Origin: a virus
Taxonomy: Duplodnaviria; Caudoviricetes
Reading direction: 5' to 3' (one strand)
IMG/VR virus record: IMGVR_UViG_3300015050_001523
Coordinates: 128,001 to 192,000 of that record
DNA: 64,000 nt
Position numbers and translations under genes: made by a program. The notes beneath the pieces were generated by a model. It was given only the letters and a program-made list of their open reading frames with translations. It was not told the origin of the DNA and did no database searches. Within the stretch, counting starts at the first letter, position 1, and each line of letters starts with the position of its first letter. Positions 2 through 16,610 of this stretch are shown piece by piece.

Positions 2-175
2 GAGGATAACTTTGATGGGGAAATGGCTCTCGTTATCCGACAGATCGCTAACAAGATCCCACGGCTTCAAGCCCGGCGACCAGGGTGCGTATGTTCCTGG
101 CCCGAGGGCGATGATACCCTATTTGACAGCAATGGCAACACGATCGGCAGCATCGCCTATAAGGAAGCCAAGTAA
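2..175 (+). CDS. Partial small phage hypothetical protein (runs off 5' edge)
   Basis: Open frame from 2 (EDNFDGEMALVIRQIANKI...LFDSNGNTIGSIAYKEAK*); stop TAA overlaps next ATG (TAATG). Confidence 0.6.
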   Translation, partial: EDNFDGEMALVIRQIANKIPRLQARRPGCVCSWPEGDDTLFDSNGNTIGSIAYKEAK

Positions 176-531: not shown

Positions 532-546
532 AGAAAAGGATGCCAT

Positions 547-614
547 TTGGCATCCTTTTTGCATGGCCAATTTTTATTAATTAATAATTTAACGATATGC
601 AAAAAAGATGCCAA
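547..614. promoter_or_regulatory. Convergent pair of sigma54-like -24/-12 boxes symmetric about TTATTAATTAATAA
   Basis: TTGGCATCCTTTTTGCA at 547-563 (+) and TTGGCATCTTTTTTGCA at 598-614 (-); each GC is 19 bp from the palindrome centre (580.5). Confidence 0.7.
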
Positions 615-641
615 GCTTGGCATCTTTCAATGTTACCAGAG

Positions 642-770
642 TCAGTCTCGCCTGGATGGCACGGCCGGCCATTGGCAGGCACACTTGGCAGTTCCACAGC
701 TCGAAGGGATCCAAATGTTCCCGCACCACGGACAGCGCGGGAAGGTCTTGGTCTTGGTCTTGGTTTCCAT
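642..770 (-). CDS. 42-aa Cys-rich microprotein (METKTKTKTFPRCPWCGNIWIPSSCGTAKCACQWPAVPSRRD), absent from ORF track
   Basis: ATG lies 6 nt downstream of TTGCGT-N16-TATGCT (804-777), the same geometry as neighbouring genes; CxxC plus CxxxxCxC. Confidence 0.7.
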   Translation of the reverse strand: METKTKTKTFPRCPWCGNIWIPSSCGTAKCACQWPAVPSRRD

Positions 771-882
771 AAACTAAGCATAACGTATTCTGGCGAGAAC
801 GCAACCCAGTTCAGTGATTTATTTTTGGCATTCTTTATGCATGCTTAAAATTTATTAATTAATTAAAAAAGAACATTAAAAG

Positions 883-905
883 AAAAGGCGCATTATGCGC
901 CTTTT
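883..905. terminator. Bidirectional intrinsic terminator (representative of about 18 similar ones in 0.9-12.6 kb)
   Basis: AAAAGGCGC-ATTAT-GCGCCTTTT; near-identical hairpins near 1957, 2360, 3541, 4457, 5779, 6303, 8731, 9063, 9555, 10074, 10696, 11064, 11605, 11978, 12545. Confidence 0.85.
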
Positions 906-907
906 GG

Positions 908-1453
908 TTATCGGGCCGTCATTTCTCCGAGCCAAAGCTTGGCATCCTTACTGTCTCGAAAGATAACAAAGCTGGCATCAATAACAAACCATCCAATATA
1001 ATTTAGATCTTTCATTCGTGGTTCTTCCTTATGGCGCAAGGCTGGCCGATCGTTATGTTGGTCTTCAACCAGCATGACTGCCATATCAAACTTTTCTTCG
1101 GGGCCAACAAACCAACCAAAGCTGCTATCTCCAACTTTGATTTCCTTAAAGGACAGAGCCTTGACAGCATGCAAAGCTCGCATTTCTCGCAAGGCGCTCG
1201 GCAAAGCTCCAAATTCAAACTCGGCCGAGCCCATATAATCGAAAGAGAAGTATTGGTCAACACCTTTACTTTGGCCTACAGAATGCTTCTTCGCACAAAT
1301 CCGCTGTACCAAATAAGTCGCCCGAGAAGGATAATTAATCTTCTCCCAATCAAGGCGCTGCTGACGCTGTGACTTTGTGGACTTTGTTTGCGAATCAGGT
1401 TGCGGCTTGGTCCAAGTGTTCGCAGAATTCATCAGTGACTTTAGGCTGGCCAT
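908..1453 (-). CDS. Hypothetical protein (181 aa), leaderless
   Basis: ORF track; TTGCAT-N16-TATCCT-N6-ATG upstream. Confidence 0.8.
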   Translation of the reverse strand: MASLKSLMNSANTWTKPQPDSQTKSTKSQRQQRLDWEKINYPSRATYLVQRICAKKHSVGQSKGVDQYFSFDYMGSAEFEFGALPSALREMRALHAVKALSFKEIKVGDSSFGWFVGPEEKFDMAVMLVEDQHNDRPALRHKEEPRMKDLNYIGWFVIDASFVIFRDSKDAKLWLGEMTAR

Positions 1454-1548
1454 GATTAAAAGGATAGCCTATCCGAATCAGGATGCAAGGCCAAAAATAA
1501 ATTTATTTTGATGTTGCGCGAGCGACCTTTATGGACCATCCTATAATC

Positions 1549-1953
1549 ATGGAAACCGAAGCCGCCGCTATCACTCTCAAGCCCGAGCCCACCAATAGCA
1601 AAGAAGAGCTTTTGCTGGCAAAGATTCCGATGCCTGACAGCGCCAATCAAAAGGAAGGCACGCGAAATGAATTGGAGATAAAGGTTCGGTATATCAAGGA
1701 TGGAATGGGAAGGCTCGGCGGCCGAGGCTTTTTCCTAACCATTCATGGATATGCGGTTGAAGGTCTATTTAAAACCTTTATGCTTTGTCAGGACCCTTCG
1801 GAGTATATCTTTGTCGAGCCCTGTCAGCGATTTGGCGCAAAGGCCATGAATCAGGCCGCTTCCCGCGCTTGCGGAGAAGAATTTCGCGCTAAGATCGAAA
1901 AAGAGGTTGTCAAGGCACAAAAGTATTATCTTGGAAAGACTTTTCCAATGTAA
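1549..1953 (+). CDS. Hypothetical protein, leaderless (start revised from 1531)
   Basis: TTGCGC-N17-CATCCT-N6-ATG. Confidence 0.75.
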   Translation: METEAAAITLKPEPTNSKEELLLAKIPMPDSANQKEGTRNELEIKVRYIKDGMGRLGGRGFFLTIHGYAVEGLFKTFMLCQDPSEYIFVEPCQRFGAKAMNQAASRACGEEFRAKIEKEVVKAQKYYLGKTFPM

Positions 1954-2111
1954 ATCAAAAGGCGCATAAAGCGCCTTTCTTTTTAAATGTTCTTTTTTAT
2001 TAATTAATAACAAGCCTTATGCATTAGCCATGCCAAGCGCCTTTGGCGCGGCATGAAATTAAAGATCGGTTTGAGGTTGCATCTTCGGAAAAATGCTTCA
2101 TGCTAAAAGAG

Positions 2112-2348
2112 ATGAAAGACAAGCCTCTTTATCCAGGAAATGTTTATGACAACCCGATTAAGGGGTATAACACCCTTTATGATGAGGTAAATATTGTGAT
2201 TAGGGAACTTGAGCGCCTTCGCAAGTTTGCTCATGATGATTCTCTCAAAAATGAACATGCACTTCACCGAGAAAATGCTTTAGGCCGAACTTGTGCCTAC
2301 GAAACTGCCAAATCATTGCTTAGTGATATCTTTGTTCGTCTTGAATGA
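2112..2348 (+). CDS. Hypothetical protein (start revised from 2043)
   Basis: TTGCAT(2077)-N16-CATGCT-N7-ATG. Confidence 0.7.
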   Translation: MKDKPLYPGNVYDNPIKGYNTLYDEVNIVIRELERLRKFAHDDSLKNEHALHRENALGRTCAYETAKSLLSDIFVRLE

Positions 2349-2529
2349 AACGATCCACTAAAAAGGCGCATAAAGCGCCTTTCTTTTAAATGTTCTTTTT
2401 TATTAATTAATAAATTAAGCCCATGCAAAAAGGATGCCAATGCGCCAAAGGCGCGGCATGAAATTAAAATCGATTTGGCCTTGCATCTTAGCTGGAATGC
2501 ATTATCATCAGAAGAGGAGCTAAAGAAAA

Positions 2530-2781
2530 ATGTCACGCACTACTCGAACGGTTCCAGGACATATGATTGATCGCGGCAGTTTGACAATTACTCCTGCCAT
2601 GCAAGATTATTTGGTGAAGGTTCAGCGAGGCCAGGCTCGGGCTGTAAGCACCGTTGTTTGCGAGCATGGCTGGCCCGAGCATATTTCCGGTTCAGACCGC
2701 AAGCGAATCAAGCGCTTTGTGGCGAAGGTTCGCCGCCGTCAGGCTCGGCAAGATATCCGAGATTCTTTTATGCTTGGCTGA
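2530..2781 (+). CDS. Small basic hypothetical protein (83 aa)
   Basis: TTGCAT(2481)-N16-TATCAT promoter; AGAGGAG SD. Confidence 0.75.
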   Translation: MSRTTRTVPGHMIDRGSLTITPAMQDYLVKVQRGQARAVSTVVCEHGWPEHISGSDRKRIKRFVAKVRRRQARQDIRDSFMLG

Positions 2782-2792
2782 GTCACCGCTAT

Positions 2793-3107
2793 ATGAATAA
2801 TCTCTCCGACCAAACCGCTTGCATCCATCCCAATCTCGCATCGCTTATTGCTGAGGAATTTACCCAATTTGGCTTTGTGCGAGTTAACCTCACAAACGGC
2901 TACGTGATCGAAATCGAACTTTACGATAGCGGTAACACCGCCGTGGTGGTCCGCGCGCCCGTAACGGAGCGATCCCCCTATGGAGGTTGCGATCTTATTT
3001 ACCAAACCAAGACTAAGCCCGCATCGGTTGCGATTGATGCGATGATGGCGCGGATCGTTGAATGGATGCGTCCGAAGACCGAGCCTGCTGACCTTGCACC
3101 ATTCTGA
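2793..3107 (+). CDS. Hypothetical protein (104 aa; start revised from 2658)
   Basis: In-frame ATG just after the upstream stop. Confidence 0.7.
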   Translation: MNNLSDQTACIHPNLASLIAEEFTQFGFVRVNLTNGYVIEIELYDSGNTAVVVRAPVTERSPYGGCDLIYQTKTKPASVAIDAMMARIVEWMRPKTEPADLAPF

Positions 3108-3220
3108 GAATCGAGGATGCCAGATTAAATCTGGCATCCTTTTTGCATTCTGGTTTAATTATTAATTAATAACTTTCTTTAAAATAAAAAGAGCGCAATA
3201 AATGCTGCGCTCTTTTTCCA

Positions 3221-3490
3221 TTAATAAAGTGTAAAGTTTTGGGCTGGACTTGGGCTTAGTCCGTTTAAAACGCATGCTCCAATTGCAGCAACCAAAGTAG
3301 AGGCATTATTCGTATTAAATTCGTATCCAACATATCGCTTTCCTTTGTGCATCCTGGTTTTATCCGAGCCTCCCCAAATGCAAAGTTTGTTCAAGTCTGT
3401 GCGAAGCTCGGGAGCCGAATCTTCACAAACAAAGATCCGATGTCCATAATAGGTTCCGCCAAGAACGACCACAAACTTTGGATTCTCCAT
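3221..3490 (-). CDS. Hypothetical protein (89 aa), leaderless
   Basis: TTGCTT-N16-TAGACT-N6-ATG. Confidence 0.75.
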   Translation of the reverse strand: MENPKFVVVLGGTYYGHRIFVCEDSAPELRTDLNKLCIWGGSDKTRMHKGKRYVGYEFNTNNASTLVAAIGACVLNGLSPSPAQNFTLY

Positions 3491-3568
3491 ATATAGAGTC
3501 TAATTCATGCTGAGCCAAAAGCAAGAAAGAAATCCTAAAAAAAAAGGCGCCTAAAGCGCCTTTCCTCG

Positions 3569-3766
3569 TTATTGAAGGTTAGCTAGAAATTTAGAGATCC
3601 TTTCACGAACCCATGGGTTTTCTGGGTCGTGCTCAATCGAGCCGCTTGCGGAGCTTTGGAAGGTGCTCGTGATTGCAAGAGGCGAGCCATAATGGCCCGT
3701 GCATCCGCGAAACATGCGAGCATCAATAACATCTGCCATGGTCATTTGAATAGAATTATTATTCAT
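3569..3766 (-). CDS. Hypothetical protein (65 aa)
   Basis: ORF track; follows 3773-4003 and precedes a terminator. Confidence 0.6.
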   Translation of the reverse strand: MNNNSIQMTMADVIDARMFRGCTGHYGSPLAITSTFQSSASGSIEHDPENPWVRERISKFLANLQ

Positions 3767-3772
3767 GATCTA

Positions 3773-4003
3773 TCATCCTTGCCAATTGCGCGGACGTGGA
3801 ACCGGCGGATCGTGCGGGTGTGGCTGGGCTTGAATAACAACCACTTCTGGCAAGAACCAGGACAAGTGTCCCGATGCCATGTTATAGCCAGCCAACCTTC
3901 CGCGCTCGTCGTAACGTGTTAGTCGCTTGTGTTTGGCACCGCTCCAAAACATATCTCCGTCTACAAGCTCGGACAGTGGAACTTTGATTGGGTCAGTCAC
4001 CAT
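3773..4003 (-). CDS. Hypothetical protein (76 aa; GTG at 4000 is an alternative start)
   Basis: TTGCAT-N16-CATTAT promoter, duplicated upstream of 4323. Confidence 0.65.
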   Translation of the reverse strand: MVTDPIKVPLSELVDGDMFWSGAKHKRLTRYDERGRLAGYNMASGHLSWFLPEVVVIQAQPHPHDPPVPRPRNWQG

Positions 4004-4137
4004 CTAATAATGCCAGAAGAAAGACAGGATGCAAGCAGACTTAATGATTTATTTTTTGCCGTGCCAAGGCACGGCTCATGCATGATGCTTGTTATTAATT
4101 AAGATTTTAATGCTAAATGCGCCAAAGGCGCTTCTTT

Positions 4138-4323
4138 TCAGTCGGACTTGCGCTTTGTGTCGGCCGCAATTTGAATCGCTCGTGCCGCAGCCGTAATTGC
4201 TGACAAGACGGCCGGCAACTGAGTAACTGCGAGAAAGCTCAGATCGCTGGCGAGCTTGCCGTATTTGCGAGCAGCATCCGCGATCTCCTTTTGAGTTTCG
4301 TTGTTGAGTATTGGATCAGCCAT
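4138..4323 (-). CDS. Small helical hypothetical protein (61 aa), leaderless
   Basis: TTGCAT-N16-CATTAT-N6-ATG. Confidence 0.7.
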   Translation of the reverse strand: MADPILNNETQKEIADAARKYGKLASDLSFLAVTQLPAVLSAITAAARAIQIAADTKRKSD

Positions 4324-4484
4324 AAGCTAATAATGCCAGAAGAAAGACAAGATGCAAGTACCTTCTGTCTATATTTATTTATTCCGCGCCTTTGGCGCTT
4401 GGCATCCTTTATGCATGAAAGTTTTTATTAATTAATTAATAACGGAACCTTAAATGAAAAAGGCGCTTTATGCGCCTTTTCAAA

Positions 4485-4937
4485 TTATTCGCACTTATTA
4501 TTGGAATCGATTGACGTCCAACAGCCAGAGTGTGGACCGACTTCGCCGATTTCCTCGTCAAGCATCAAAGCATAAACGGGAAAAAAGATAGAACCTCCAC
4601 CATGACTGTTAAAGTAAGGGAACCTCGCATCAATCGCTGTGCAGAGCGGCATGGTAATTGCACGATACAGAATCTCGGAATCAGAAGGTGCAATTTCCTT
4701 TCCATCATAATCGATAATGGAGGCAACAACCATCTTTCCAAGAGAGTCAACAATCGACTTGTAAGAATTGTCGACAATTTCGACCTTGATTCCTTCGGCG
4801 CTCAATTCCGCATGGATCTTCAAAGCCTTTTCGAAGGTATGATATTCTCCCTCAAAAACTCGCCTTCCGCTTCCATTACCAGGAACGCTAGGAACGAAAG
4901 AGAGGACAGCAAACGGAGCATTGATTGGCTGGCTCAT
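4485..4937 (-). CDS. Hypothetical protein (150 aa; start revised from 5105)
   Basis: TTGCTC-N16-TATCTT-N7-ATG. Confidence 0.7.
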   Translation of the reverse strand: MSQPINAPFAVLSFVPSVPGNGSGRRVFEGEYHTFEKALKIHAELSAEGIKVEIVDNSYKSIVDSLGKMVVASIIDYDGKEIAPSDSEILYRAITMPLCTAIDARFPYFNSHGGGSIFFPVYALMLDEEIGEVGPHSGCWTSIDSNNKCE

Positions 4938-5033
4938 CCCTAACAAGATAGCATCCTCCAATGAGCGAGCAACGATTAAAATAAATTTATTTTCGTTCTT
5001 GACTCTCTCGGATTCTCGGCCAGACTTATAATC

Positions 5034-5321
5034 ATGACCCGCCAGATCGCCATCGCTGAAGCTGCTCGGCCTTTCTATGTTGTGGAGGTTGCGCCGACCT
5101 ACCATCCTGTTACAGATGGAATTACTGGTTACCGCGAATACCGCGAAAGCGAAGCAAGCTACGAAACCTTTGGTGGCGCTAGCTGGCGCGTTGGAATGCT
5201 GGATCGGCGATATGGCGGGGATGTCTGGTATGCGATTCGTGATGCGCTTGGGCGTAGTGTTTACTTCCCGCGAGTCGAGCCCGAGCAGGCACCTTGCGAG
5301 GATGGCGATATTCCGTTCTAA
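5034..5321 (+). CDS. Hypothetical protein (95 aa)
   Basis: TTGACT(4999)-N16-CAGACT-N7-ATG. Confidence 0.75.
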   Translation: MTRQIAIAEAARPFYVVEVAPTYHPVTDGITGYREYRESEASYETFGGASWRVGMLDRRYGGDVWYAIRDALGRSVYFPRVEPEQAPCEDGDIPF

Positions 5322-5357
5322 GCTTGCATCCCATCATTTTCGAGGTATAACTCTCTC

Positions 5358-5792
5358 ATGGAAACCGCCGAGTCTTTTATTTCCAAGTTGAATCTTTCTT
5401 TTACTGAAAGCTTCCCTAACGGATTCATTTCGACTCAGATTCACCGGTCACTTTGCAAGGCTGATGCCTTTAAAATTTATGTTGTTTTTACGATTCTTCC
5501 GCTTGGAGCGCAAACAAACGGAATCGTTGAAAACGATCCGAGCCTGAACAAATTTTTCATTTACATCGGCGAAAATCTTGAATCTTTGCCGGAATCGATC
5601 CAAACTGATCTATTCCAAGGAAATAGGCTTTACAGCCCAAAGGGACCGCAAGCGGGCAGCGAAAAGCTGGGCTGGCGCAATGGCAAGGCATCGGCCGAAA
5701 AGATCCTAAAAAAGTTTGATCTTTTCTTTAAGAAGGTTCGGGCGATGGTCGATGCCAATGGTGGAATTGAGGCTTATCAAAAGAGCGCATAA
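5358..5792 (+). CDS. Hypothetical protein (144 aa)
   Basis: TTGCAT(5324)-N16-TATAAC-N6-ATG. Confidence 0.8.
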   Translation: METAESFISKLNLSFTESFPNGFISTQIHRSLCKADAFKIYVVFTILPLGAQTNGIVENDPSLNKFFIYIGENLESLPESIQTDLFQGNRLYSPKGPQAGSEKLGWRNGKASAEKILKKFDLFFKKVRAMVDANGGIEAYQKSA

Positions 5793-5935
5793 CGCGCTCT
5801 TTTTCTTTTTAAGATCATGGCTTATTAATTAACAAGAAAAGCCATGCAGGAAGCATGCCAAGCGCCAAAGGCGCTGCATAAAATAAACCGTCAAAGTCCG
5901 CTTGCATCTTGGCTTCTATGAGGTATCATTACATC

Positions 5936-6199
5936 ATGCGAAATCGAAACTTTCTTCTTCCTTTGGTGCTTTGCTTTGGCTTTCTTATTGGCTGCACCGT
6001 GCCCAGCGATCGGGCTATGCACGTGCTAAAGGGAGCCGGTTATACTGAGGTCAACCTCGGTGATCATGCGTGGTATAGCTGCGGAAAGGATGATACCCTC
6101 GCAACTGAGTTTGTGGCCAAAGGTCCAAATGGCCAGCGTGTTCAGGGTGCGGTTTGTTGCGGTGTTTGGGGCAAGAGCTGCACCGTTCGGCTTGACTAG
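5936..6199 (+). CDS. Small lipoprotein (87 aa)
   Basis: TTGCAT(5902)-N16-TATCAT-N6-ATG; basic N-terminus, hydrophobic stretch, lipobox LIGC. Confidence 0.8.
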   Translation: MRNRNFLLPLVLCFGFLIGCTVPSDRAMHVLKGAGYTEVNLGDHAWYSCGKDDTLATEFVAKGPNGQRVQGAVCCGVWGKSCTVRLD

Positions 6200-6203
6200 A
6201 TTT

Positions 6204-6299
6204 ATGACGACCGCGATCGGTATGCCTCTAACAATTCTAGTATGCTTATTCTCTGGAATAGCCGTTTCGCTGCTCCTAAACAAGAAACGAAGGAGCTAA
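6204..6299 (+). CDS. Possible 31-aa single-TM peptide
   Basis: MTTAIGMPLTILVCLFSGIAVSLLLNKKRRS; hydrophobic core and basic tail; lies between a gene and a terminator. Confidence 0.4.
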   Translation: MTTAIGMPLTILVCLFSGIAVSLLLNKKRRS

Positions 6300-6459
6300 A
6301 CCTAAAGGCGCATTACGCGCCTTTTCTTCTTTGCCAAAAACATTTATTAATTAATAAAAATTCTTCATGCACAAGGCATGCCAAGGCGCCAAAGGCGCGG
6401 CATGAAATTAAAGATCGATTTGAGGTTGCATCTTGATTTGGATAGGTTATCCTTGGAGT

Positions 6460-6705
6460 ATGGGAAAGACGCAACGAAACCGGAAGCAGCAGTCCAAGGG
6501 CCAAGAAATGACCCGAGCCGCCGCCCGAGCATACATGGTTCGAAACCTCAAGGATTACACCGATCGAATCAGCGGCGATGTCAATCTGACCCGCCTCGCC
6601 GAGTCATGTTGTCAAGCTTTCAATTGTAACCATGATGGTGGTCCCCTCGATCAAGAGGATCATTGGATTTGGGATGTTACCGCGGATTTCTCAAATATCC
6701 GGTAA
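6460..6705 (+). CDS. Hypothetical protein (start revised from 6433)
   Basis: TTGCAT(6426)-N16-TATCCT-N6-ATG. Confidence 0.75.
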   Translation: MGKTQRNRKQQSKGQEMTRAAARAYMVRNLKDYTDRISGDVNLTRLAESCCQAFNCNHDGGPLDQEDHWIWDVTADFSNIR

Positions 6706-6712
6706 AACCCAT

Positions 6713-6943
6713 ATGACCACAATCCTAATGTTTTTCGTGGGAATCGTTGTTGGCACAATGATTGGCTGGATTCTTGGCTGGAGCCTCATTGTTATTTGTA
6801 GCTATCCTTTGGAATGGCTCCGAAGGCGCAAGCGACTCAAGGAATTTGAGCGCGAGGAGCGCGAAAAAGAAAATGATTTGATCCTCAACTTGGATCCTCA
6901 ACTTCTAACCGAGCTAATTCAAGCATTCCGAAACCAAAAGTAA
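6713..6943 (+). CDS. Small membrane protein
   Basis: N-terminal TM helix (MTTILMFFVGIVVGTMIGWILGWSLIVI) then charged tail. Confidence 0.7.
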   Translation: MTTILMFFVGIVVGTMIGWILGWSLIVICSYPLEWLRRRKRLKEFEREEREKENDLILNLDPQLLTELIQAFRNQK

Positions 6944-7058
6944 AAAAATCAAACGAAAAAATGGCGAATTTTCGCCATTTTTTGCTTAAGGTATCAGGTT
7001 ATTAATTAATTAATCTTAAGAATGCAAAAAATGTTCCAAAGGATTTCCTTTGGAACAT

Positions 7059-7160
7059 TGCACCAAATAGGATTTGAACCTATATCCCTCCAGACAACGC
7101 TGGTAGCACTTAATTCTTGCAAAAATCAGTGCAGTGCTTTACCCATTAAGCTATTGGTGC
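7059..7160 (-). ncRNA. Atypical 102-nt tRNA-like RNA (anticodon not assignable)
   Basis: Acceptor GCACCAA/TTGGTGC, D-arm GCTT-AATGGGTA-AAGC, T-arm ATAGG-TTCAAAT-CCTAT; about 52-nt central region with two hairpins; terminator hairpin at 7031-7058. Confidence 0.75.
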
Positions 7161-7405
7161 GATTTAAATTGCCCAGTCCCAAAAAGAACTTGACAAAAGA
7201 TAAAGCGCGAAAAGGCACATTCCAAAAACAGCGCAGGTTGCAACAACCATTGTCCAAGTAATAATGTCTGAAATGAGCATTTGGGTGGAGACCTTCATAT
7301 GCTTAATGATGGCAGAAAAAATCAGAAGCGCAAGCCATTTTTTCGTTTGATTTTTTGGCAAAAATTTAAATAAAAAAGGGAGCCCGACCGGCTCCCTTTC
7401 TCGCA

Positions 7406-7661
7406 TGTCTTTCCAGGCTGTCAAGCATGCCAAGATTTGATCAAAACTAGATTGTTCATGCTGAAACTTTCTAGCCTTTAGCTTGTCTTTCCAAGCTGTC
7501 AAGCATGCCAAGATTTGATCAAAACTAGATTGTTCATGCTGAAACTTTCTAGCCTTTAGCTTGTCTTTCCAAGCTGTCAAGCATACCAAGATTTGATCAA
7601 AACTAGATTGTTAATGCTGAAACTTTCTAGCCTTTAGCTTGTCTTTCCAAGCTGTCAAGCA
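7406..7661. repeat. 78-bp tandem repeat (about 3.3 copies), plus a solo core copy at 7770-7791
   Basis: TGTCTTTCCA recurs at 7406, 7484, 7562, 7640; core GCTTGTCTTTCCAAGCTGTCAA. Confidence 0.95.
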
Positions 7662-8315
7662 TATCTTTTTAAGATCCAGGTGCTATTATGCCGGATAGCC
7701 GCCTTTAAGACTGTTATTCCAAGTTAATCCCGACCAAGTGTGCAAAACAGCCAAAAAGTTTGGTCGAATGCTTGTCTTTCCAAGCTGTCAACCCTTAGAC
7801 TTGCGTCACAGGCTTTAAGAAGCTGTCCGCCGACTTTTCGGCGGAGCTAAGAGTTAGTTTTATCTGGACCATTCCAGTCGAGCCATTGGCTCTAATACAC
7901 TTTTTTTCAGAAATTTTTGTTAGGGGTTGAAAGCGACTTATCGCTTCGGAGGAGCCCGCGCAGTGTTATTAGATTTGTTCATTTTTGTCCTTTCAGACAG
8001 AAGATGGCTGAATCAGACAGAAGAGAAGATGGCCGAAGGAACCGTAATCAAGAAAACAAAGGTAAAAACGATGAAAGCGGTCGTCATTTTGGTTTCTTTC
8101 TGGCGGGAGAAGTTCTCCGCTGCCGACCCTCAAAGTATGAGGCATTCTGCCGAGGATGCAAGCCGCCTTTGACGATTTAATTTGCGGCGACAAAGGCGCC
8201 TTGGCATGGTTCATGCATGGCTTAATTTATTAATTAAGAACATTGCGTCAAAGGCGCAAAAAATTTAAGATCGATTTGGGCTTGCATCTTACCTTGGCCA
8301 TGGTATCCTGAAGTC

Positions 8316-8711: not shown

Positions 8712-8896
8712 ACAAACCAAACATTCCTTAAGAGCGCCTTGTGCGCCCTTTTCTTCTTGAGTTATTAATTAATAACAATTATCATGCATTAAGGATGCCA
8801 AGGCGCCTTTGGCGCGGCATAAAATAAATCGACCGAAGGCTTGCATCTTCTCTAGACTCTGATAAGATAAACCTGACTCCAAAAAGGAACCCAACC

Positions 8897-9043
8897 ATGC
8901 AAAAGTTCATCATCGCCTCCATCATCGCTTTTTCTCTCTTTCTTTCTGGTTGCGATCTCGCCGAGCAGGGTTACACTTGCGACGACGCTGGTCAGCTTAT
9001 CGAGCCGACCGGAAAGCCGACCGGCCTGCCCTGTCCTTTCTGA
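8897..9043 (+). CDS. 48-aa lipoprotein, absent from ORF track
   Basis: MQKFIIASIIAFSLFLSGCDLAEQ...; lipobox LSGC; AAGGA SD; TTGCAT(8841)-N16-TAAGAT. Confidence 0.75.
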   Translation: MQKFIIASIIAFSLFLSGCDLAEQGYTCDDAGQLIEPTGKPTGLPCPF

Positions 9044-9221
9044 GAGGAAAGACACAACTTTGGAAAAGGGCGCTTTATGCGCCCTTTGTTTTTTAAAGTT
9101 TTCGACTTATTAATTAATAAAACTTATTATGCATGAAGGATGCCAAGCGCCAAAGGCGCGGCATAAAATAAATCGTCAAAGATGGGTTGCGTCTTATGTA
9201 AATCCACACTAATATGAAGTC

Positions 9222-9536
9222 ATGTCCAGTCCATTTCTTGTCGATGTCAAGCGGTATCTCCTCCATTTGATTGCAACTGACATTGTTACTGGATTACCAT
9301 TTGGAGGTGGTTTTCCGAAATCGCTAATGATGCAACTGCTTCCGTGGTCAAACTTGCAAGCTGATTTCATTGAAGCAATGCGCGGCAAAACTTGCGGCGT
9401 GGGAGAGGCTACTGATACAGACCCCGATGGTGAATGTGTGTACTACATGGATAATGTCGTCGACTGGCTCCAAAGCGACGAAACCGAACAAGTCTCTCCC
9501 TATGTTAAAAGCCTCTCAAAACTCAAGGACATGTAA
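9222..9536 (+). CDS. Hypothetical protein (104 aa), leaderless
   Basis: TTGCGT-N17-TAATAT-N6-ATG. Confidence 0.75.
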   Translation: MSSPFLVDVKRYLLHLIATDIVTGLPFGGGFPKSLMMQLLPWSNLQADFIEAMRGKTCGVGEATDTDPDGECVYYMDNVVDWLQSDETEQVSPYVKSLSKLKDM

Positions 9537-9712
9537 AAAATCCAGCCGCATCTAAAGGGGCATAAAGCCCCTTTTTTCTTTAAGTTTCCTAAATTATTAA
9601 TTAATAAAAATCCTTCATGCATAGTCCATGCCAAAGCGCCAAAGGCGCTTCATAAAATAAATCGTCAATGCGGCTTGCATAACTCTTTGATTGGTTTATG
9701 CTTCGGATTGCA

Positions 9713-10057
9713 ATGCTTCTCACTTTCGAAGAAAAGCTCATCGGGATTTCTCTCATGCAAGCGGGATGCTCGGCTTCCTCGGCTTCCGTTCAAATGAATG
9801 CATATTCAGGAGGCCAGTACACACTGGAAAAGATGCGCGATCTTTTCAAGTCCTTGGAAGAGGCCAAGAAAACTCACAAGGCGATTGGCGGCGTATTGAT
9901 CGAACTTCAAAACCCAGAAGCCACGGTAGAAGATCGCGTGTTTTTTCTGTATTCCATGGACAATCGAAGCGTGCAAGTAACAAAAGCGTTTCTGAACACC
10001 TGCTTGCCAGAATGGGCGATCCAGCTCGAAAAGATCATGGATTCGTGGGATTTCTAA
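9713..10057 (+). CDS. Hypothetical protein (start revised from 9698)
   Basis: TTGCAT(9675)-N16-TATGCT overlaps the track start codon. Confidence 0.7.
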   Translation: MLLTFEEKLIGISLMQAGCSASSASVQMNAYSGGQYTLEKMRDLFKSLEEAKKTHKAIGGVLIELQNPEATVEDRVFFLYSMDNRSVQVTKAFLNTCLPEWAIQLEKIMDSWDF

Positions 10058-10234
10058 CAAGTCACACGTTCAAAAAGGGCGCACAAAGCGCCCTTTTTCT
10101 TTTTTAAGTTCCTGAGTTTATTAATTAATAAAGCTTATTATTCATGAATCGTGCCAAAGCGCCAAAGGCGCATGATAAAATAAATCGTCAAAGATGGCTT
10201 GCGCCCCTCGCCAATCCAAGCTAAGGTTAATCCG

Positions 10235-10678
10235 ATGGCAAATTTCAAAACCCTCCTCGCTGCTTCCCTCGTTCGCAATTCGCGCAAGGAACAGGCCCAG
10301 GAATGGCAGCAATCCATCGCGCTTGCCGCGCAAAGCGAAGATAACTTCGAGCGCGAGGTTGAAGTCCGAACCCGTGCGATTTGTGAGCATGATTTCTGCG
10401 CGAGTTTCACCAGCCTCGTGGAAAGCGAGGTTCACAGCGCGCTTCTCGCGCAGGTCAAGGAACTTTCGATTTGCGCGGCATGCGCAGAGTATGAAAGTCG
10501 GCATTGTTCGGATTGTCGCGGATATGGCTTCACTTCATGGGAGAATCGTTCGACTCGGGCCATGCTTGCCGATCCGCATACTGTGAACAAAATCGATGAA
10601 TCCATCCGAGCCGAGCTTGAAAGCCGCTTGGGAAAAGGAGCTTGGGAGGATATGATGGAATGCATGAATGATGCATAA
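10235..10678 (+). CDS. Hypothetical protein with CxxC pairs (start revised from 10199)
   Basis: TTGCGC-N17-TAAGGT-N7-ATG; CAAC and CSDC motifs. Confidence 0.75.
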   Translation: MANFKTLLAASLVRNSRKEQAQEWQQSIALAAQSEDNFEREVEVRTRAICEHDFCASFTSLVESEVHSALLAQVKELSICAACAEYESRHCSDCRGYGFTSWENRSTRAMLADPHTVNKIDESIRAELESRLGKGAWEDMMECMNDA

Positions 10679-10851
10679 CAAATCAAACATTCCCAAGGGC
10701 GCATAAGGCGCCCTTTTTCTTTTTAGACTTCCAATTTATTAATTAATAAATTTGAATATGCATGAAGGATGCCAAGGCGCCAAAGGCGCGGCATAAATAA
10801 AAAATAAATCGTTGCTTGACTTCGGCCGAGACTCGATTAGAATGATCTTCG

Positions 10852-11043
10852 ATGGAAACCGTCCGCTTCACCTTCACCGCTACCGCCATCGGCTCGACTC
10901 ACGAGATCACGATTGTCGTTCCGATTGAAGATGATCCAGAGCTTGCTTACTCGGAACTTGCGGACAACGCGCAAGAGCAAGCTGAGCAGATCGCGCGCGA
11001 GCGACTCGGAGTCGAGGATGTCGAGGTTCTGCTGCGCAGCTAG
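10852..11043 (+). CDS. Small acidic hypothetical protein (63 aa)
   Basis: TTGACT(10816)-N16-TAGAAT-N8-ATG. Confidence 0.75.
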   Translation: METVRFTFTATAIGSTHEITIVVPIEDDPELAYSELADNAQEQAEQIARERLGVEDVEVLLRS

Positions 11044-11222
11044 CGCCGCTCTCTTCGGATCCTTAAGGGCGCTTGAAGCGCCCTTTTCTTTTTAAGTTTC
11101 CTGAGCTATTAATTAATAAAGTTTACTATGCATAAAGGATGCCAAAGCGCCAAAGGCGCGGCATAAAATAAATCGACCGAGGTTGCTTGCATCTTCTCAA
11201 TCATGATTTATAGTTCCTTTGC

Positions 11223-11579
11223 ATGGCGACCCAAATGGTTCCGACCCTCTCGATCTTCTCTATGCCTGAGAACGTCTATTGGCAGGCGAACGAATTGCGC
11301 AATTCGGACAATCCGCATCGATACTCTGCGTGCAATTATTTCACGCATGGTAGCGTATACTTCCAAAAAGGCCATTGGCTGAGCGAAGACATGTGGATCG
11401 TCGAAATCGATGGCGAGGAGATCGCTACCTTTAAGCTTCGATTCTTGACCGAGGCGGTTGCTTTTATGTCGGTCCAAGTCGACAAGGATGGTGATCGTGA
11501 TGCGATGGTGAATGCTATGCAAAGCACGCAAAGTGACTATGAGGAGGATTGGGATTATGAAGAGGAGTTTCGTGAATAA
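11223..11579 (+). CDS. Hypothetical protein with acidic tail (118 aa)
   Basis: TTGCAT(11187)-N16-TATAGT-N8-ATG. Confidence 0.75.
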   Translation: MATQMVPTLSIFSMPENVYWQANELRNSDNPHRYSACNYFTHGSVYFQKGHWLSEDMWIVEIDGEEIATFKLRFLTEAVAFMSVQVDKDGDRDAMVNAMQSTQSDYEEDWDYEEEFRE

Positions 11580-12024
11580 ACAGGATAAAATCAAACATTC
11601 CTTAAGGGCGCTTTGTGCGCCCTTTTTGCTTTAAGTTTCCTAAATTATTAATTAATAACCCCTAGCCATACACCTTCTATGCCAACGTCTTTATTTTGTT
11701 GCACATTATTCGCAGCATAAGCTGGCTTCCTAGAAGCTTCCAGAAGGCGGCGAGGACTCGGCCGGTACCCTCGCCGCCCGACAGGCCGAAAACGGCTCAG
11801 CAAGGCGCATAACAATGTTTCCTTTGATGCTAGCATCTGGCCGGCGCTGCCCAAAAACGGAGGAGAAGATCGAACCCTAGCCTCCACCCCCCTCCAAAAA
11901 ATGGCCCAAATCTTGCTTAAATTCTGGGCGTTAATTAATTAAAATTCTCTATGCAAAAAATGGACCAAAGTTAAATAAAAAAGGGCGCTTTATGCGCCCT
12001 AACAAAATGAAAGCTTTGGGAGGA

Positions 12025-12408
12025 TTAAATGAAATAATCGCTTTCGTACCAAAGATCATGGTCAAAGGTATCAAAACCCATAACCTCGTTGAAGGCGTGA
12101 GCGCCTCCTATCATTCCTGCATGAACTGCCATTTCATCCAAGCATGCACGCTCGAATTGCGCAGCTTCATGCGCCTTTTGCGCATTCATTTGCGCAATTT
12201 CTGCGTCAGTTTTGACGCGGCGAGAAACTCCCAAATCTGGGATCTCAAGCCAAGCTGTCCAAACCAACATTTTATTTAGAGGTTTTGAATCGTGAGGATT
12301 GTGAAAAAACTCCAAAGCCTCAGCTTCCGTTTCGAACGAAACGCTAGAATGACAATCATCGTTACCATTGGCAGGATTGGAACCCCAGAAAAAAACTTCG
12401 ATAGCCAT
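12025..12408 (-). CDS. Hypothetical protein (127 aa)
   Basis: ORF track; TTGCCT...TATAAA upstream. Confidence 0.75.
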   Translation of the reverse strand: MAIEVFFWGSNPANGNDDCHSSVSFETEAEALEFFHNPHDSKPLNKMLVWTAWLEIPDLGVSRRVKTDAEIAQMNAQKAHEAAQFERACLDEMAVHAGMIGGAHAFNEVMGFDTFDHDLWYESDYFI

Positions 12409-12620
12409 CGCACAAATTTATAGCAAAGGACATGCTCCAAGGCAAGCCAACTTAAAGATTTATTTTTTGGCATCATTTATGCATGAGCCAAATTTATTAA
12501 TTAATGAATTTCTCGATGCAAAAAATAGGCCGAAACATTAAAATAAAAAGGGCGCATAAAGCGCCCTTCAAAAGCTATTAATAAAAAATGGCGCGGATCT
12601 TGCAACCCGCGCCATTGGCG

Positions 12621-13586
12621 CTAACCGAGCACCGCTTCGATTTTCTCGACCGCGAACTTCACGCGATCGTTACCCTTCGCGTCGAAATGATTGCGCTCGT
12701 CGGACAAAACCCACAAAACATAATCAACCATCGATTTGTTAGCATGGATCTTCGAGGGATGCGGGATTCGCGCGATGTCGGCGCGAAGGTCGCGCATCAA
12801 CCGATTGAGCCGATCAAACGCGGTCTCGGCGCGCTCGGGATCCGGCGCAGCCTGGCCATCATGCGCACGGAGCGCTTCATCGGTCACGTTGAGGATCTCG
12901 CGGTAAATGCGCCCAAGCATGCCGGGGTTGTTGCAGTGGCGGTGATCGCGCCCTTCGGTCCAAGTGCCAAGGCGCCCAACGCGCTTCACAGTGTGACCCT
13001 TGCGCTGGTCGCGCGTCTTCGAGCTGACGCCGGGAGCGCAGATCCGAATCTGATCCGAGCCGAGCGGCCGAACGGCGCCGCCAACGCGCTTGCCGTTGGC
13101 GCTCTTGCCGCCAACAATCGAAGTGAAGACCGAGACCACGATCGGCATGCCGCGCGAGTCGCGCCCAACCTCACGAACCCAGATCTCCTCACCGGGAGTC
13201 AGCGGAGATCCCGCGGTCTCGCTGGCGAACGCGAACCCCGCAATGAGCAGAACATCGCGGATCGCGCCAGCGAGCATTTCGCGCGATTGCGTGCTATGCG
13301 GATCGTACTTGGTTTCCGCGGTGTACGCGGTATGCGGGGTTTGCGCCCACGTCTGCGACTCTCGCGCAGCATCGGCCGCGGCTTGCGCAGCCGCACGCAA
13401 ATCTTGCTCCGGGTTCTCAGCGCGCAGTTCCCGCGAAGCTTGCGCGAGGAGCGCATCGTAATCCAGACCATGCTCGGCGCAGATCTTGCACGCGTTAAGT
13501 CGCGCGTTAAGCGCTTCGGTCGAGCTAGTCGCGGGATGCGCAACGATCTTAAGGAGCTTTACCACTTTGGAGGAGAAGTTCGACAT
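12621..13586 (-). CDS. Hypothetical protein with DUF2786-like N-terminus (321 aa)
   Basis: KVVKLLKIVAHPATSSTEALNARLNACKICAEHGLD resembles the DUF2786 helical motif; TTGCTT-N16-CATAAT promoter; most GC-rich gene in the window. Confidence 0.65.
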   Translation of the reverse strand: MSNFSSKVVKLLKIVAHPATSSTEALNARLNACKICAEHGLDYDALLAQASRELRAENPEQDLRAAAQAAADAARESQTWAQTPHTAYTAETKYDPHSTQSREMLAGAIRDVLLIAGFAFASETAGSPLTPGEEIWVREVGRDSRGMPIVVSVFTSIVGGKSANGKRVGGAVRPLGSDQIRICAPGVSSKTRDQRKGHTVKRVGRLGTWTEGRDHRHCNNPGMLGRIYREILNVTDEALRAHDGQAAPDPERAETAFDRLNRLMRDLRADIARIPHPSKIHANKSMVDYVLWVLSDERNHFDAKGNDRVKFAVEKIEAVLG

Positions 13587-13899
13587 GGTAGCTTTGTCGC
13601 TTTCGGCACCGGTCAGCGGCGCATCGGGAAAAAATCAGGATCGATTTGATTATGGTCCGAGATCAAGATTAAGCAAGCGATACGCAAAGAAAAAAATCCA
13701 CCTAATTAAATCAATCACTTACACTTGGCACCAATCTTGCCGATCAGAATTCCTAACATAAGCGATTTTTTAACTTTCTTTTAACTAATATTCCTATGGA
13801 TCGAATCTTGCAAAGGATCTTCCTTGGATCAGATCTTGCATAAAAAGCACGTTATTAATTAATAGCTCAGGCATATGCATAAAAGATGCCAGCGCAAGG

Positions 13900-16610
13900 T
13901 TTGCGCTCCAAAGCAAGCCAAAATCATTGAACATTTAAGGCATAGGGCTGGGACGTCGTATAAGGCTCATGGCGAGGCGATCGCCAAAACAAGGGAGAGG
14001 TTAGGGGTCACCCTTAAAAACCCGTCTCCGTCAATCCTCGCGCGTCGAGCCTAGAACCGCTGCTAGTCGCCGATCCAAGCCCGAAACCGCCAAAATCCCT
14101 TAAATCCGCAAGCCGCGCACAAGAAAAGATAAGGAAAGGTGAGCAAACCTCATGAAATGTAATTAAAGGTAAAGAGATGGAATCAATCATAAACAAACCT
14201 CCCACCATGTAAGTAAAGGTCATGACGTCTGGGATAATGTCATGACATATAAGTGAATTGGATCAAAGATAATAAAATATAACCAAACATAATGAAAGGT
14301 AGGCAAACATCGGGAAAGGTAATAAGAGGTAGCCTAAGATAATCCAAGGAAATGAAAGGTAGGCAAATGTCATGAGACTTGGGGAAACCTAAGAGAAGTA
14401 AACACGCGCCGCATAACCTATACAAAAAACTTATATTGAAGGGAAATAAAATCAAATATCCCTCATGTATGACACCATCCCAGCTTGTAAACCGTTGCAG
14501 CATTTACTGTAACAGCATTCATTGATTCAATAAACACTGAAACATCTTAACCGTCTCACTCGCAACCGTTACAGTAAACGCTGTCACAGTGTTCGCTGAA
14601 ACACTAATCAATGTCTCAATAAAAATGTTTCAGTAAACAATGACATAATAACATAACTAACCCTTATCCCATCCTTGCCTACATATAAGCTTTCCTCATG
14701 ACATTTCCTTACCCCTTTTTGTGAACTAGCTTACATATCGTTTCATGCGTTGCAACATCACTTGAAACACTCCGCGCATGATTCGCAAACATCGTTCCAG
14801 CATGGCTAAACATCATGCTAGACCCCCATATCCCTCAGGTTTGGCGTGAAACATGGGGGCAATGGTCCTATCGCCCCCCATCCTATCGCCTCGCAGAATC
14901 CATCCTGGCGCGCGACAGCCTATGAAGGTTTCTTGCCTACATATAAACTTTCCATAAACTAACTCTCCCATAATAAATCTAACCTTCCTATAACCAACTA
15001 TTTCCTAACTCTATACAAATTATATGCCATCAAATTCCTAACTTTCCTTAACCCTTTCATAATTCCTTCTATATCTTCCGTTCCTTCCTCTCCTATTACC
15101 ATTTAAAGCTAATAATAATCAGATAACCCATTTCCCTTATGGATCAATGGCCCAATTACCATTTCAAACATTCCTGCCATATCTAATATGTTTGTTTTGC
15201 TATATTTGGCCAAATAACTGCTTAAACTATTATAAATAGTAAAGCTTACTTTACTATCTCCTTAGTTTTTCAAAATATTGAATATTAATTATATCATTAT
15301 TTTTTGAATTGTTGGGATTGTCTAAAACGATAGCTATGTTCGATTAGGGAGCTTTTTGACATATTAGCCGCTATAAATAACGATCAGTTTCTTGCATATT
15401 TCATGCCAGTTAAAAGGCTACCATTCCTCAAAAACCTATTATGCCGAATCATTCATATTTAATGATCCTAACTCCACGAATTCAAACATTTCGCATTAAT
15501 TAATAACCCCTTATTTCATTATTTCCAGAATATCAAAGAAAGCTAGCAAAACAAAAGGATGGAAAAAGCTAACAAAAGCGATATTTCCAAGAAAGCTAAA
15601 ATGCCGAATCATTCATATTTAATGATCCTAGCTATTCGAATTCGAAGTTTTGATAGTTATGTTTGGATTGGTAGAAATATAAGGAAAGTTAGAAATGGGA
15701 GTTATTAATTAAGAAGGTAAAGGCATGCACAAGGCATGCCAACCACAAAAGTTAGGAATGATAGATTAGGAAGGAAAGTTAGGAAGGAAAGTTAGGAATG
15801 AGAGAAAGAGGAGGAGAACCCAGCCAAATCAAACCTCCTATTCCTACCTAACCTTATATCTCTTATGCTAGATATATGGGATATGTCTGGGTTGATAGGT
15901 TATGCTCGCCCATCCTTAATTAACAATCCTTCTCTATGCAATCCCTATGCCATGTCTCCATGTTCGATATGTTAGCTTTGTTCCAAAAGCTCTTAATTAA
16001 CAAATCCGATTCATGCAACCCTTATGCCAATAGCTTTGATACTAATGTTAGGAATGGGAGCCTTATATCCCTTCAGCTTTGTTAGGTTATGCTTTGGCAT
16101 GAAGTATGCAAGATGTTAGGTTTGGTAGGCTAACATTGTTCTAAATTTAGTTATAGGAATGGATGCTATGTTGGGATTGTTAGGATTGATAGGTAAATTT
16201 TAAATAGCTTTGGCAGCTTTGATGCTTTCGCGCCAAGGCCGCCATGTTCGGTTTGTTATTAATGTTTGATATGGGAGGATTGGGTATATTAGTTTTCTTC
16301 GATATGTTAGCTTCGCCGGGTTTGCGCTCGGGCCGCATAGCTCCTATTCCTCCCGGTAGGATACCCGCCTACATCACCCCCCTTTAGACCCCCCCTGTTT
16401 ACCCCCCCTTACACCCCCCTACCATGCGTCACTAATCGCCCCCTTATGGACCTGCTCTAAGAGCCCTCGCAAAAATTTTCTAAATTTTTAACATTTTTAA
16501 ATGATTACATTTTTCCGAAAATGTAATCAAAAAATATTTGATATATGGGTCGAAAAAATTTTTGGGGAAAATTTTTGAAAATTAGGAATTTATAGATGTT
16601 TATGTTTATG
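13900..16610. other. About 2.7-kb non-coding, repeat-rich region (candidate genome terminus or origin)
   Basis: No credible ORF; CCTAAC and GTTAGG repeats in opposite arms; 30-bp direct repeat at 15441 and 15601; sigma54-like boxes at about 15392, 15725, 15937, 16014, 16094. Confidence 0.55.
16377..16419 (-). other. G-quadruplex-forming motif
   Basis: Minus strand G6-TGTAA-G7-TAAACA-G7-TCTAAA-G6. Confidence 0.7.

Follow-up and report, generated by a model that had tools for sequence, protein, structure and literature searches.

The DNA analysed here covers bases 128,001-192,000 of the virus record IMGVR_UViG_3300015050_001523, and this stretch of 64,000 bp is hereafter called the window. Its first ~16 kb lie inside a GC-rich island of ~30 small accessory genes, which are partitioned by one repeated terminator-promoter module; within this module, a short box with the sequence features of a sigma-54 promoter is phased to a 14-bp AT palindrome. 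The record is 322,518 bp long (completeness estimate 93%) and belongs to a phage that is T4-like in the broad sense, with rIIA and rIIB, a gp23-type major capsid protein and, within the island, an ATPase resembling nrdC.10. The phage has 25 tRNA genes. The G + C content of the genome is ~32%, and that of the island, which occupies ~30 kb (~118-146 kb of the genome), is 45-52%. The array of modules continues ~12 kb to the left of the window. The nearest named relatives of the capsid protein are those of an uncultured 484-kb phage (46%), Flavobacterium phage immuto (43%) and cyano-/Microcystis phages (32%); the relative searches turned up no close cultured phage. Parts of the stretch were present in two public runs, a freshwater metagenome and a run labelled only 'metagenome'. 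Both are DNA runs with partial relatives only, and no RNA run was among the public runs containing the stretch.

In the window the cassette array, a hyperplastic island of small ORFan genes that are each bounded by the composite module, runs from 1 to 13900 (no strand; 45-52% GC). The cassette proteins are ORFans: one carries DUF7695 and the rest gave no significant Pfam or PHROG match, two of them having marginal PHROG matches (E ~0.004). No homologues of the cassette proteins were found in IMG/VR. The frequencies of purine and G at codon position 1 were ~0.60/0.33 in the open reading frames (ORFs) consistent with the module, compared to 0.54/0.26 on the opposite strand, and this bias, together with the gene calls of a relative contig, supports the assigned orientation of the genes.

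Anatomy of the boundary module

The regions around all palindromes were aligned, each oriented by its downstream gene. The alignment revealed a composite of ~150 nt, consisting of a terminator, the AT palindrome, the box, a GC hairpin, an AT tract, a -35/-10-like promoter and an ATG. The original prediction had recognised the elements of the box, but the larger module that bounds every cassette went unremarked in it, as did the role of several boxes as 3' arm and T tract of ordinary terminators. Read in the direction of the downstream gene, the module starts with a GC hairpin (loop of 4-5 nt) and a T run, which form terminator A of the preceding gene, and after a spacer of ~22 nt the palindrome TTATTAATTAATAA follows. 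A second spacer of 8-9 nt leads to ATGCAT-N5-ATGCCAA, which is the box read on the gene strand, and then to hairpin B (GCGCC-AAA/TTT-GGCGC), GGCAT and an AT-rich tract. On the promoter side, TTGCAT-N16-17-TAnnnT was positionally conserved in 13 modules (with CAnnnT in 3 of the 13), and the ATG mostly lies 6-10 nt past the -10-like TAnnnT.

A representative module has terminator A at 10696-10726 on the plus strand (7-bp GC stem, 5-nt loop, T run), the perfect 14-bp AT palindrome TTATTAATTAATAA at 10736-10749 (no strand), the sigma-54-like box at 10759-10775 on the minus strand, reading towards the palindrome, and hairpin B, GCGCC-AAA-GGCGC, at 10777-10789 (no strand). The AT-rich tract and putative promoter follow at 10790-10851 on the plus strand, with a -35-like TTGACT (10816-10821), a -10-like TAGAAT (10838-10843) and the ATG at 10852. 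The cassette promoters are assigned from their conserved position and we regard them as putative; TTGCAT matches TTGACA at 3 of 6 positions.

In total 23 terminator-like sites were found, compared to 9.8 +/- 3.4 in shuffles. A GC hairpin with a direct T run, as defines a terminator, is present in terminator A and at the boxes at 547, 598 and 3131. The promoter-side boxes fit this definition weakly, with two non-T bases before a short, interrupted T run. Genes on the box strand that would start in the loop of terminator A were considered and rejected, since the ATG was inconsistent between copies and the codon-position statistics were worse.

The ATG follows the -10-like element closely in, for example, the cassettes at 5918, 6460, 9222, 10235, 11223 and 12588, so many cassette mRNAs would be leaderless; the cassettes at 2530 and 8897 have a normal Shine-Dalgarno leader. 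Hairpin B was found as GCGCC-AAA-GGCGC or as its reverse complement GCGCC-TTT-GGCGC in collinear modules (for example 2037 and 8803 versus 2442 and 9147), which indicates that the hairpin is flipped in place in about one third of the copies. Hairpin B, with its 5-bp stem and 3-nt loop, was also considered as an N4-type hairpin promoter, and this was rejected because the loop flips between AAA and TTT and some modules miss the hairpin, no search aimed at a virion RNA polymerase having been made. T4 late promoters (TATAAATA), MotA-box middle promoters and Bacteroidota promoters (TAnnTTTG) did not match the module, and their motifs were not enriched upstream of genes. A forward sigma-70 promoter, made up of ATGCCA as -35, TAAAAT as -10 and an 18-nt spacer formed by hairpin B, does not hold for modules that lack the hairpin, and it leaves TGCAT and the phasing to the palindrome described below unexplained.

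A constrained, directional box phased to the palindrome

The window contains 15 copies of the pattern TTGGCAT-N5-WTGCA, where 0.06 would be expected and no more than one was found in any of 100 shuffles; all 15 lie at or before position 16110. The repeated sigma-54-like box that had been predicted is therefore real, and it stands far above both shuffled sequence and the remainder of the window, the two comparisons that had been proposed. The whole 322,518-bp record contains 18 matches, 17 of which lie between 126.2 and 144.1 kb of the genome. Exact TGGCAT-N6-TGCA was found 24 times in the island and once in the remaining 292 kb, and the relaxed form TGGCA[TC]-N6-TG[CT]A has 28 island copies against ~0.2 expected.

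Every box position in the original prediction proved to be a genuine copy, although some are variants. On the plus strand, boxes are located at 547-563 (14-mer 574-587), 825-841 (14-mer 852-865; module without hairpin B), 3131-3147 (14-mer 3159-3172; starting with CTGGCAT), 4399-4415 (14-mer 4425-4438), 8201-8217 (14-mer 8227-8240; at a divergent junction), 12467-12483 (14-mer 12494-12507; module without hairpin B) and 16094-16110 (without palindrome). The boxes at 547 and 3131 form the 3' arm and T tract of the terminators of the genes at 175-531 and 2793-3107, respectively. On the minus strand, the box at 598-614, also a terminator arm, is convergent with that at 547 and shares its 14-mer. 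Further boxes on this strand are located at 2020-2036 (14-mer 1997-2010), 2424-2440 (2400-2413), 5845-5861 (5822-5835), 6368-6384 (6344-6357), 8785-8801 (8762-8775), 9130-9146 (9107-9120), 9618-9634 (9594-9607), 11129-11145 (11106-11119), 11669-11685 (11645-11658; with TGTA instead of TGCA) and 13876-13892 (13852-13865; starting with CTGGCAT), and the box at 15393-15409 has no palindrome. Free-standing boxes on the minus strand are present at 15726-15742 (AT element 15702-15715; in a non-coding region, without hairpin or promoter), 15937-15953 (AT element 15913-15926; starting with ATGGCAT) and 16014-16030 (AT element 15990-16003). At the W position, the boxes at 5845, 6368 and 15726 carry C or G. 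Three convergent pairs had been claimed, of which 547/598 is exact; the partners at ~12517 (of the box at 12467) and 13824 (of the box at 13876) are degenerate, reading CGGCCT and TTGGAT.

Downstream of 23 of the 28 boxes lies TTAATTAA, and in 21 boxes the 14-mer TTATTAATTAATAA, either exact or with a single mismatch, begins at a distance of 9-11 nt past TGCA. This offset places the GC of the box ~18-20 bp from the centre of the palindrome, in agreement with the phase lock originally described. Genome-wide there are 68 copies of TTAATTAA, 33 of them in the island and the others in unrelated, mostly coding contexts. The distance from box to palindrome is fixed, while the distance from box to -35 moves by ~16 nt between modules with and without hairpin B, which indicates that the position of the box is tied to the palindrome rather than to the cassette promoter.

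Every box points away from the promoter of its own module and into the palindrome. There are 22 boxes with flanking genes. What lies ahead of the box, at 53-121 nt, is the 3' end of a gene in 17 of them, and in 14 a gene starts divergently at 45-97 nt behind the box, which bears out the prediction that the boxes usually point away from the adjacent gene and into a terminator. Four boxes appeared to be in sense orientation; these are junctions of two back-to-back modules (8201, 12467 and a pair left of the window), and at the sense junction left of the window the ATPase and helix-turn-helix (HTH) genes have their own elements, TTGCGT/TATCAT and TTGCAC/CATACT. It was thus correctly foreseen that the boxes head no genes: a position upstream of a gene or operon to be transcribed, as expected of a sigma-54 promoter, was not found.

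The module is constrained in blocks. Across the 13 full modules, the palindrome and ATGCC each had a mean pairwise identity of 0.97, TGCAT and hairpin B each one of 0.90, and the -35 one of 0.88; lower values were obtained for the hairpin partner GGCAT (0.77), the N5 spacer (0.53) and the spacer between palindrome and box (0.37). Conserved blocks amid drifting spacers argue for selection on the blocks and against recent copying. In 5 of the 13 modules the partner arm, with which hairpin B could be extended, departs from the usual sequence, and the box never changes to compensate. In addition, the box unit is kept in modules without hairpin B (at 855 and 12497), as the descending arm and T run of an ordinary terminator (547, 598 and 3131), and free-standing in a 2.7-kb non-coding stretch (15726, 15937 and 16014). 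The conserved, autonomous core of the module is therefore a directional unit of TTGGCAT-N5-WTGCAT, 9-10 nt and the AT 14-mer.

A second array was found on contigs L322-L324, which were retrieved through P0006, a 52%-identical homologue of the island protein P0003 (see below), and whose first ~11 kb are elevated in GC relative to the flank. L322 contains 13 boxes, against ~0.1 expected, of the form TGGCA[TC]-N5-TTGCA (TTGCA in 10 of the 13), and these are closer to the sigma-54 consensus than the boxes of the window. An altered AT 14-mer, TTATTAATAAATAA or TTATTTATTAATAA, starts 9-10 nt after 7 of the 13 boxes, and 8 of the 13 have such a 14-mer overall. The boxes at L322 3751 and 4989 double as terminator arms (3' arm and T run). 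The promoter side of the L322 module could not be aligned with the modules of the window. Full information is retained in both arrays at TGGCA and TGCA, with sigma-54 spacing between them, and at no other positions. In both phage lineages (window 1-16000 and L322 1-12000) the cassette island is 10-15 GC points above the rest of the phage, which suggests that the cassettes were drawn from a gene pool other than that of the core genome.

Closer relatives of the island itself were also present. A 353-aa cassette protein has an 86%-identical relative on a 9.5-kb contig with the same gaps of ~150-170 nt and a partly different set of cassettes. Contigs of the two metagenome runs, at 85-95% identity, have modules joined across skipped cassettes; this suggests insertions and deletions at the level of cassettes, with the proviso that repeats can mislead such joints.

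These relatives bear on an explanation in which the box has no dedicated reader. The box would then be the descending arm and U tract of a backward terminator, each boundary would carry face-to-face terminators around an AT spacer, and the conservation would stem from homogenisation by phage recombination, as proposed for the promoter-early stem-loops (PeSLs) of T4-type phages, with homology for the shuffling of cassettes as main role. The cassette-level joints at modules in the two runs and the partly different cassettes of the relative contig fit this explanation, as do the boxes at 547, 598, 3131 and L322 3751 and 4989, which are the 3' arm and T run of canonical terminators. Most promoter-side copies, read in the direction of the box, fold as ATGCC-GCGCC-loop-GGCGC-GGCAU followed by a T-rich N5. 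PeSLs are known to flank ORFans and to recombine so as to shuffle them, and mini-circles have been documented (Arbiol et al. 2010, PMC2839356; Comeau et al. 2014, PMC4122927). However, the stems show no covariation, as seen from the partner arm that deviates and the box that does not, and the box persists without any hairpin at 855, 12497, 15726, 15937 and 16014. Moreover, TGCAT lies outside any stem and is nevertheless 0.90 identical where the spacers are at 0.37-0.53, and the same blocks alone survive in the diverged relative. We therefore consider an array without a reader improbable.

Database searches with the module gave little. Three module patterns were searched in IMG/VR and species genomes and nothing related was found, and TTGGCAT-N5-ATGCATG in IMG/VR gave single matches at about chance frequency, with few exceptions. 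In a complete 144-kb phage with terminal repeats (G001), seven copies of TGGCA[TC]-N6-TGCA in both orientations are present within 520 bp of non-coding DNA (L269 4690-5260) and an eighth lies 2.7 kb away; the repeat resembles TATG(G)CATA dyads, the phage has no P0003 homologue, and the copies may be iterons of a different protein. Two viral contigs (L224 at 8949 and 9807 on the minus strand, L244 at 2857 on the plus strand) carry near-identical repeats of ~80 nt, CTAC-TTGGCATG-N4-ATGCATG. In the L224 repeats a Shine-Dalgarno sequence and ATG follow ~45-55 nt further on. The repeats of both contigs are candidates for genuine sigma-54-type or phage-specific promoters heading phage genes.

Candidate readers of the box

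By its pattern, the box passes as a sigma-54 recognition sequence. The invariant GG and GC are 12 nt apart, the flanks T-TGGCA-Y and TGCA are near-invariant and the N5 spacer is variable; the -24 GG / -12 GC spacing of TGGCAC-N5-TTGCW was found in 28 island copies and in 13 copies of the relative. A metagenome scan for the AT element plus box retrieved 12 loci from ~5 unrelated gene families, all in upstream regions. In the four families with a downstream gene that were tested (11 of the 12 loci, the remainder being L033), the box strand runs into a ribosome-binding site and ATG. The genes behind these boxes encode glutamine synthetase (SAR86), an ammonium transporter (alphaproteobacterium) and a Gcw_chp protein. 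Among 80 SAR86 glutamine synthetase loci (L121-L200) the box was present in 40, and the TGGC...TGC sites upstream of the gene read TGGCA(T 77%)-N5-T(88%)TGCA(73%)T(91%), which is the form of the phage. The proposed likeness to sigma-54 promoters thus holds at the level of sequence, since the invariants are kept, the same positions alone are kept in the relative, and real promoters are retrieved.

The TGGCAT-N5-TTGCAT promoter of SAR86 is well conserved and lies ~45-60 nt before the ATG of glutamine synthetase, and several SAR86 genomes have GCAC-N7-GTGC dyads of the NtrC-site type further upstream. Other clades have a different element upstream of this gene, GTTAAACCC...GAGTTTAAC. The AT palindrome was rejected as a part of real sigma-54 promoters, because only 6 of the 40 boxed SAR86 glutamine synthetase promoters contain the AT element; its presence at the metagenome matches results from the search pattern, which selects it in AT-rich DNA.

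The phage itself offers none of the further parts of a sigma-54 system. A search for rpoN gave no Sigma54_DBD match above cut-off in the phage. No activator of the PF00158 type was found in the phage either; the matches were to generic AAA+ domains in other parts of the genome, and control genomes that lack sigma-54 give matches to this family as well. The host might supply an activator. No conserved dyad was present 80-150 nt upstream of the box, a region taken up by the cassette promoter and the start of the coding sequence. Lacking a downstream gene, an activator and an upstream activator site, the array fails as a set of working sigma-54 promoters. The boxes would make no mRNA, because there is nothing codable ahead of them. 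In the original reading of the array as RpoN sites, the sequence likeness, the phase lock and the absence of useful mRNAs thus stood, while the phage provides neither rpoN nor an activator.

Nonetheless, the sites could be active promoters if some activator were supplied. Short antisense RNAs would then run from the palindrome into the terminator or 3' end of the upstream cassette and jointly shut the early cassettes. The promoter geometry speaks for this, with a predicted +1 at the start of the 14-mer, and so does terminator A, which read backwards has only 2-5 T in most copies, so that many antisense transcripts would run into the gene. With no activator gene in the phage, no conserved upstream activator site and nothing conserved downstream of the palindrome across contexts, we consider this very improbable.

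Who reads the box, and whatever would follow from it, we infer from these features. The box unit is probably a protein-binding boundary element, and its most likely reader would be the host's RNA polymerase holoenzyme with sigma-54. Without an enhancer-binding activator, the holoenzyme would remain on the box in a stable closed complex. It would there lie back to back with the cassette promoter and meet head-on any transcription that comes out of the upstream cassette, and the cassettes would thereby be insulated from read-through. As a by-product, the 25-30 sites per replicating genome could absorb the small sigma-54 pool of the cell. Reading of the box by the holoenzyme through occupancy, with the bound enzyme serving as insulator or roadblock and titrating sigma-54 incidentally, is the explanation towards which we lean, tentatively and at somewhat less than an even chance. 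The function as an RpoN decoy is put forward as a hypothesis.

Several observations weigh against the holoenzyme as reader. In about half of the copies in the window, position -15 is A and not the T preferred by sigma-54 promoters. Most boxes are matched by a complementary sequence (ATGCC...GGCAT) or lie in terminator stems, and sigma-54 needs neither. The cassette promoters are weak matches to TTGACA/TATAAT, and a generic sigma-70 scan found 12 where 10.1 were expected. The repeat was chosen in the first place for its resemblance to sigma-54 promoters, which is a selection effect. Cyanophages are among the capsid matches; cyanobacteria are not known to have sigma-54. Finally, the tandem GCAT-N7-GCAT next to AT tracts could be read by a two-HTH protein encoded in the island.

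This protein, P0003 (207 aa, with a match to the resolvase-type HTH_7), is encoded just left of the window. The original prediction had allowed for an unknown phage protein on the boxes and had overlooked this island-encoded candidate. Its gene is divergent from that of a 358-aa ATPase homologous to T4 nrdC.10 (PHROG 1250), with two convergent boxes between them; the pair is located at L321 13022-15092, corresponding to window positions -2978 to -908. P0003 has two HTH domains of the Hin/resolvase type, with a basic GRPR-like arm in front of each; in all, three basic arms are conserved (GRPR, RGRKG and RGRPA), and its AlphaFold model contains two three-helix units (mean predicted local distance difference test score, pLDDT, of 59). 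P0003 also has an acidic Ala/Glu/Pro tail, and the P0003 and ATPase genes have a G + C content of ~52-54%, the highest in both lineages. Comparison of the ATPase and P0003 sequences with solved structures gave no useful information.

As an operator, the box and AT 14-mer would bind another DNA-binding protein of phage or host, with P0003 as the leading candidate. Its two HTH domains would sit on the GCAT repeats, which are 11 bp apart, with the arms in the adjacent T/A-rich minor grooves and the palindrome. Placed at every boundary, P0003 could insulate the cassettes, repress or time the early ones globally, or guide recombination. The HTH_7 match, the arms and the modelled three-helix units are consistent with this, as is the position of the gene inside the island beside convergent boxes. 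In the only other array found (L322-L324), a 52%-identical homologue of P0003 is likewise encoded next to the array. The two lineages have the putative recognition helices in common, which would explain the conservation of the box, and they differ in the AT 14-mer, as might be the case for a phage-specific operator.

An unrelated protein would, however, have to share the specificity of sigma-54 at ~10 positions by coincidence, and the model is of low confidence. In addition, the distant family members on L335, L336 and L337 are accompanied by neither box arrays nor AT 14-mers. The P0003 family comprises ~18 cluster representatives; on L333, a short relative contig, the canonical TGGCAC-N5-TTGCA is kept upstream of the P0003-family gene. 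No P0003 homologue was found in the species genomes and IMG/VR, nor in the four phage records with box clusters. These sequences speak neither for nor against a link between the family and the box. An operator of P0003 or another such protein is a serious possibility, but we think it rather unlikely.

The sigma-54 reading can be carried further. With sigma-54 sites without activator at every cassette boundary, the phage would turn the most stable closed promoter complex of its host into a protein insulator; during replication the sites, by then in their thousands, would be a sponge that silences the sigma-54 regulon of the host, and the AT palindrome would be a phage-specific tuning operator. 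In enterobacteria, this regulon includes the phage-shock and RNA-repair operons. We consider this extended version unlikely.

Cassettes of the PeSL type are the proposed engine of gene shuffling in T4-like phages, and their extra conserved parts have not yet been dissected. The boundary module described here holds a directional, constrained bipartite site that cannot be distinguished in sequence from a sigma-54 promoter and that is kept in a diverged relative while the rest drifts. If the sigma-54 holoenzyme is the reader, this would be, to our knowledge, the first phage to exploit an alternative sigma factor for its occupancy alone, be it as insulator or as sponge. If P0003 is the reader, the array would represent a new genome-wide boundary or timer system for phage accessory genes. 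With either reader, the box unit provides a defined sequence handle on how hyperplastic regions stay transcriptionally modular.

Other features of the island and comparison with known systems

Besides the modules, the cassette array contains an Rfam tRNA match at 7059-7160 on the minus strand (56 bits over 102 nt), which was not called by ARAGORN and may be an interrupted or otherwise unusual tRNA or tRNA-like gene. Adjoining it, at 7403-7800, a 78-nt unit containing GCTTGTCTTTCCAAGCTGTCAA is repeated five times in tandem, with 96-100% identity and without a clear ORF. The array is followed at 13900-16600 (no strand) by the non-coding stretch of ~2.7 kb that holds the free-standing box units; its G + C content is 37-42% and it is packed with short repeats. 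Among them are units similar to AGGAAAGTTAGG, a direct repeat of 36 nt (at ~15440 and ~15600) and, at 16340-16440, blocks rich in C. No convincing ORFs and no Rfam match were found in this stretch, which could serve as an origin or in packaging, or could contain non-coding RNA.

The island shares with integron attC arrays a series of small genes, mostly unknown, with a repeated and partly palindromic element between them. In contrast to integrons, each cassette has its own promoter-like element and terminator, cassettes are present on both strands, and the repeat does not have the attC architecture. No recombinase or integrase was found among the island proteins scanned, and the island is not classified as an integron. 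Operator arrays of the lambda OR/OL type are similar in having a repeated bipartite site near the gene of a DNA-binding protein, including its upstream region. The lambda sites are clustered at a single promoter, whereas the boxes of the phage are spread over ~30 kb at every gene boundary.

Genuine sigma-54 promoters, such as glnAp2 and that of the SAR86 glutamine synthetase gene, have in common with the boxes the GG and GC 12 nt apart, YTGGCA(C/T), (T)TGCA(T), the variable spacer and the directionality. The boxes differ from them in having no gene or operon downstream, no upstream activator site and no activator gene in the phage; furthermore, there are up to 28 copies in 30 kb, many overlap hairpins or terminators, and an AT palindrome lies at the predicted start. 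Orphan, intragenic or antisense sites of the sigma-54 holoenzyme were reportedly described in Salmonella and E. coli by Samuels et al. in 2013 and Shimada et al. in 2021. Like the boxes, orphan bacterial sites head no genes and may act by occupancy, but they are scattered single sites on the chromosome, whereas the boxes form a phased array within viral regulatory cassettes.

The array is most similar in design to the PeSLs, which are conserved intergenic cassettes in the hyperplastic regions of T4-type phages, each combining a stem-loop terminator and an AT-rich tract with a sigma-70-like promoter, a Shine-Dalgarno sequence and a start codon (PMC2839356, PMC4122927). The module is likewise a short conserved intergenic cassette with a stem-loop terminator, an AT-rich tract, putative -35/-10 elements and a start codon. 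It flanks ORFans, and relatives appear to differ by insertions and deletions at the cassette level. The location also corresponds, with small ORFans being flanked in a hyperplastic region of a T4-like genome (rIIA/rIIB, gp23 and nrdC.10). The module differs from PeSLs in being about twice as long, in having a -35 that is only TTG-like, in the many genes that look leaderless and in the presence of cassettes on both strands. It adds hairpin B, the perfect 14-bp AT palindrome and the backward box, three elements that are absent from the PeSL text consulted. Because the module fits the PeSL architecture and adds a palindrome, a box and a second hairpin to it, we have filed the array as a new variant of the PeSLs.

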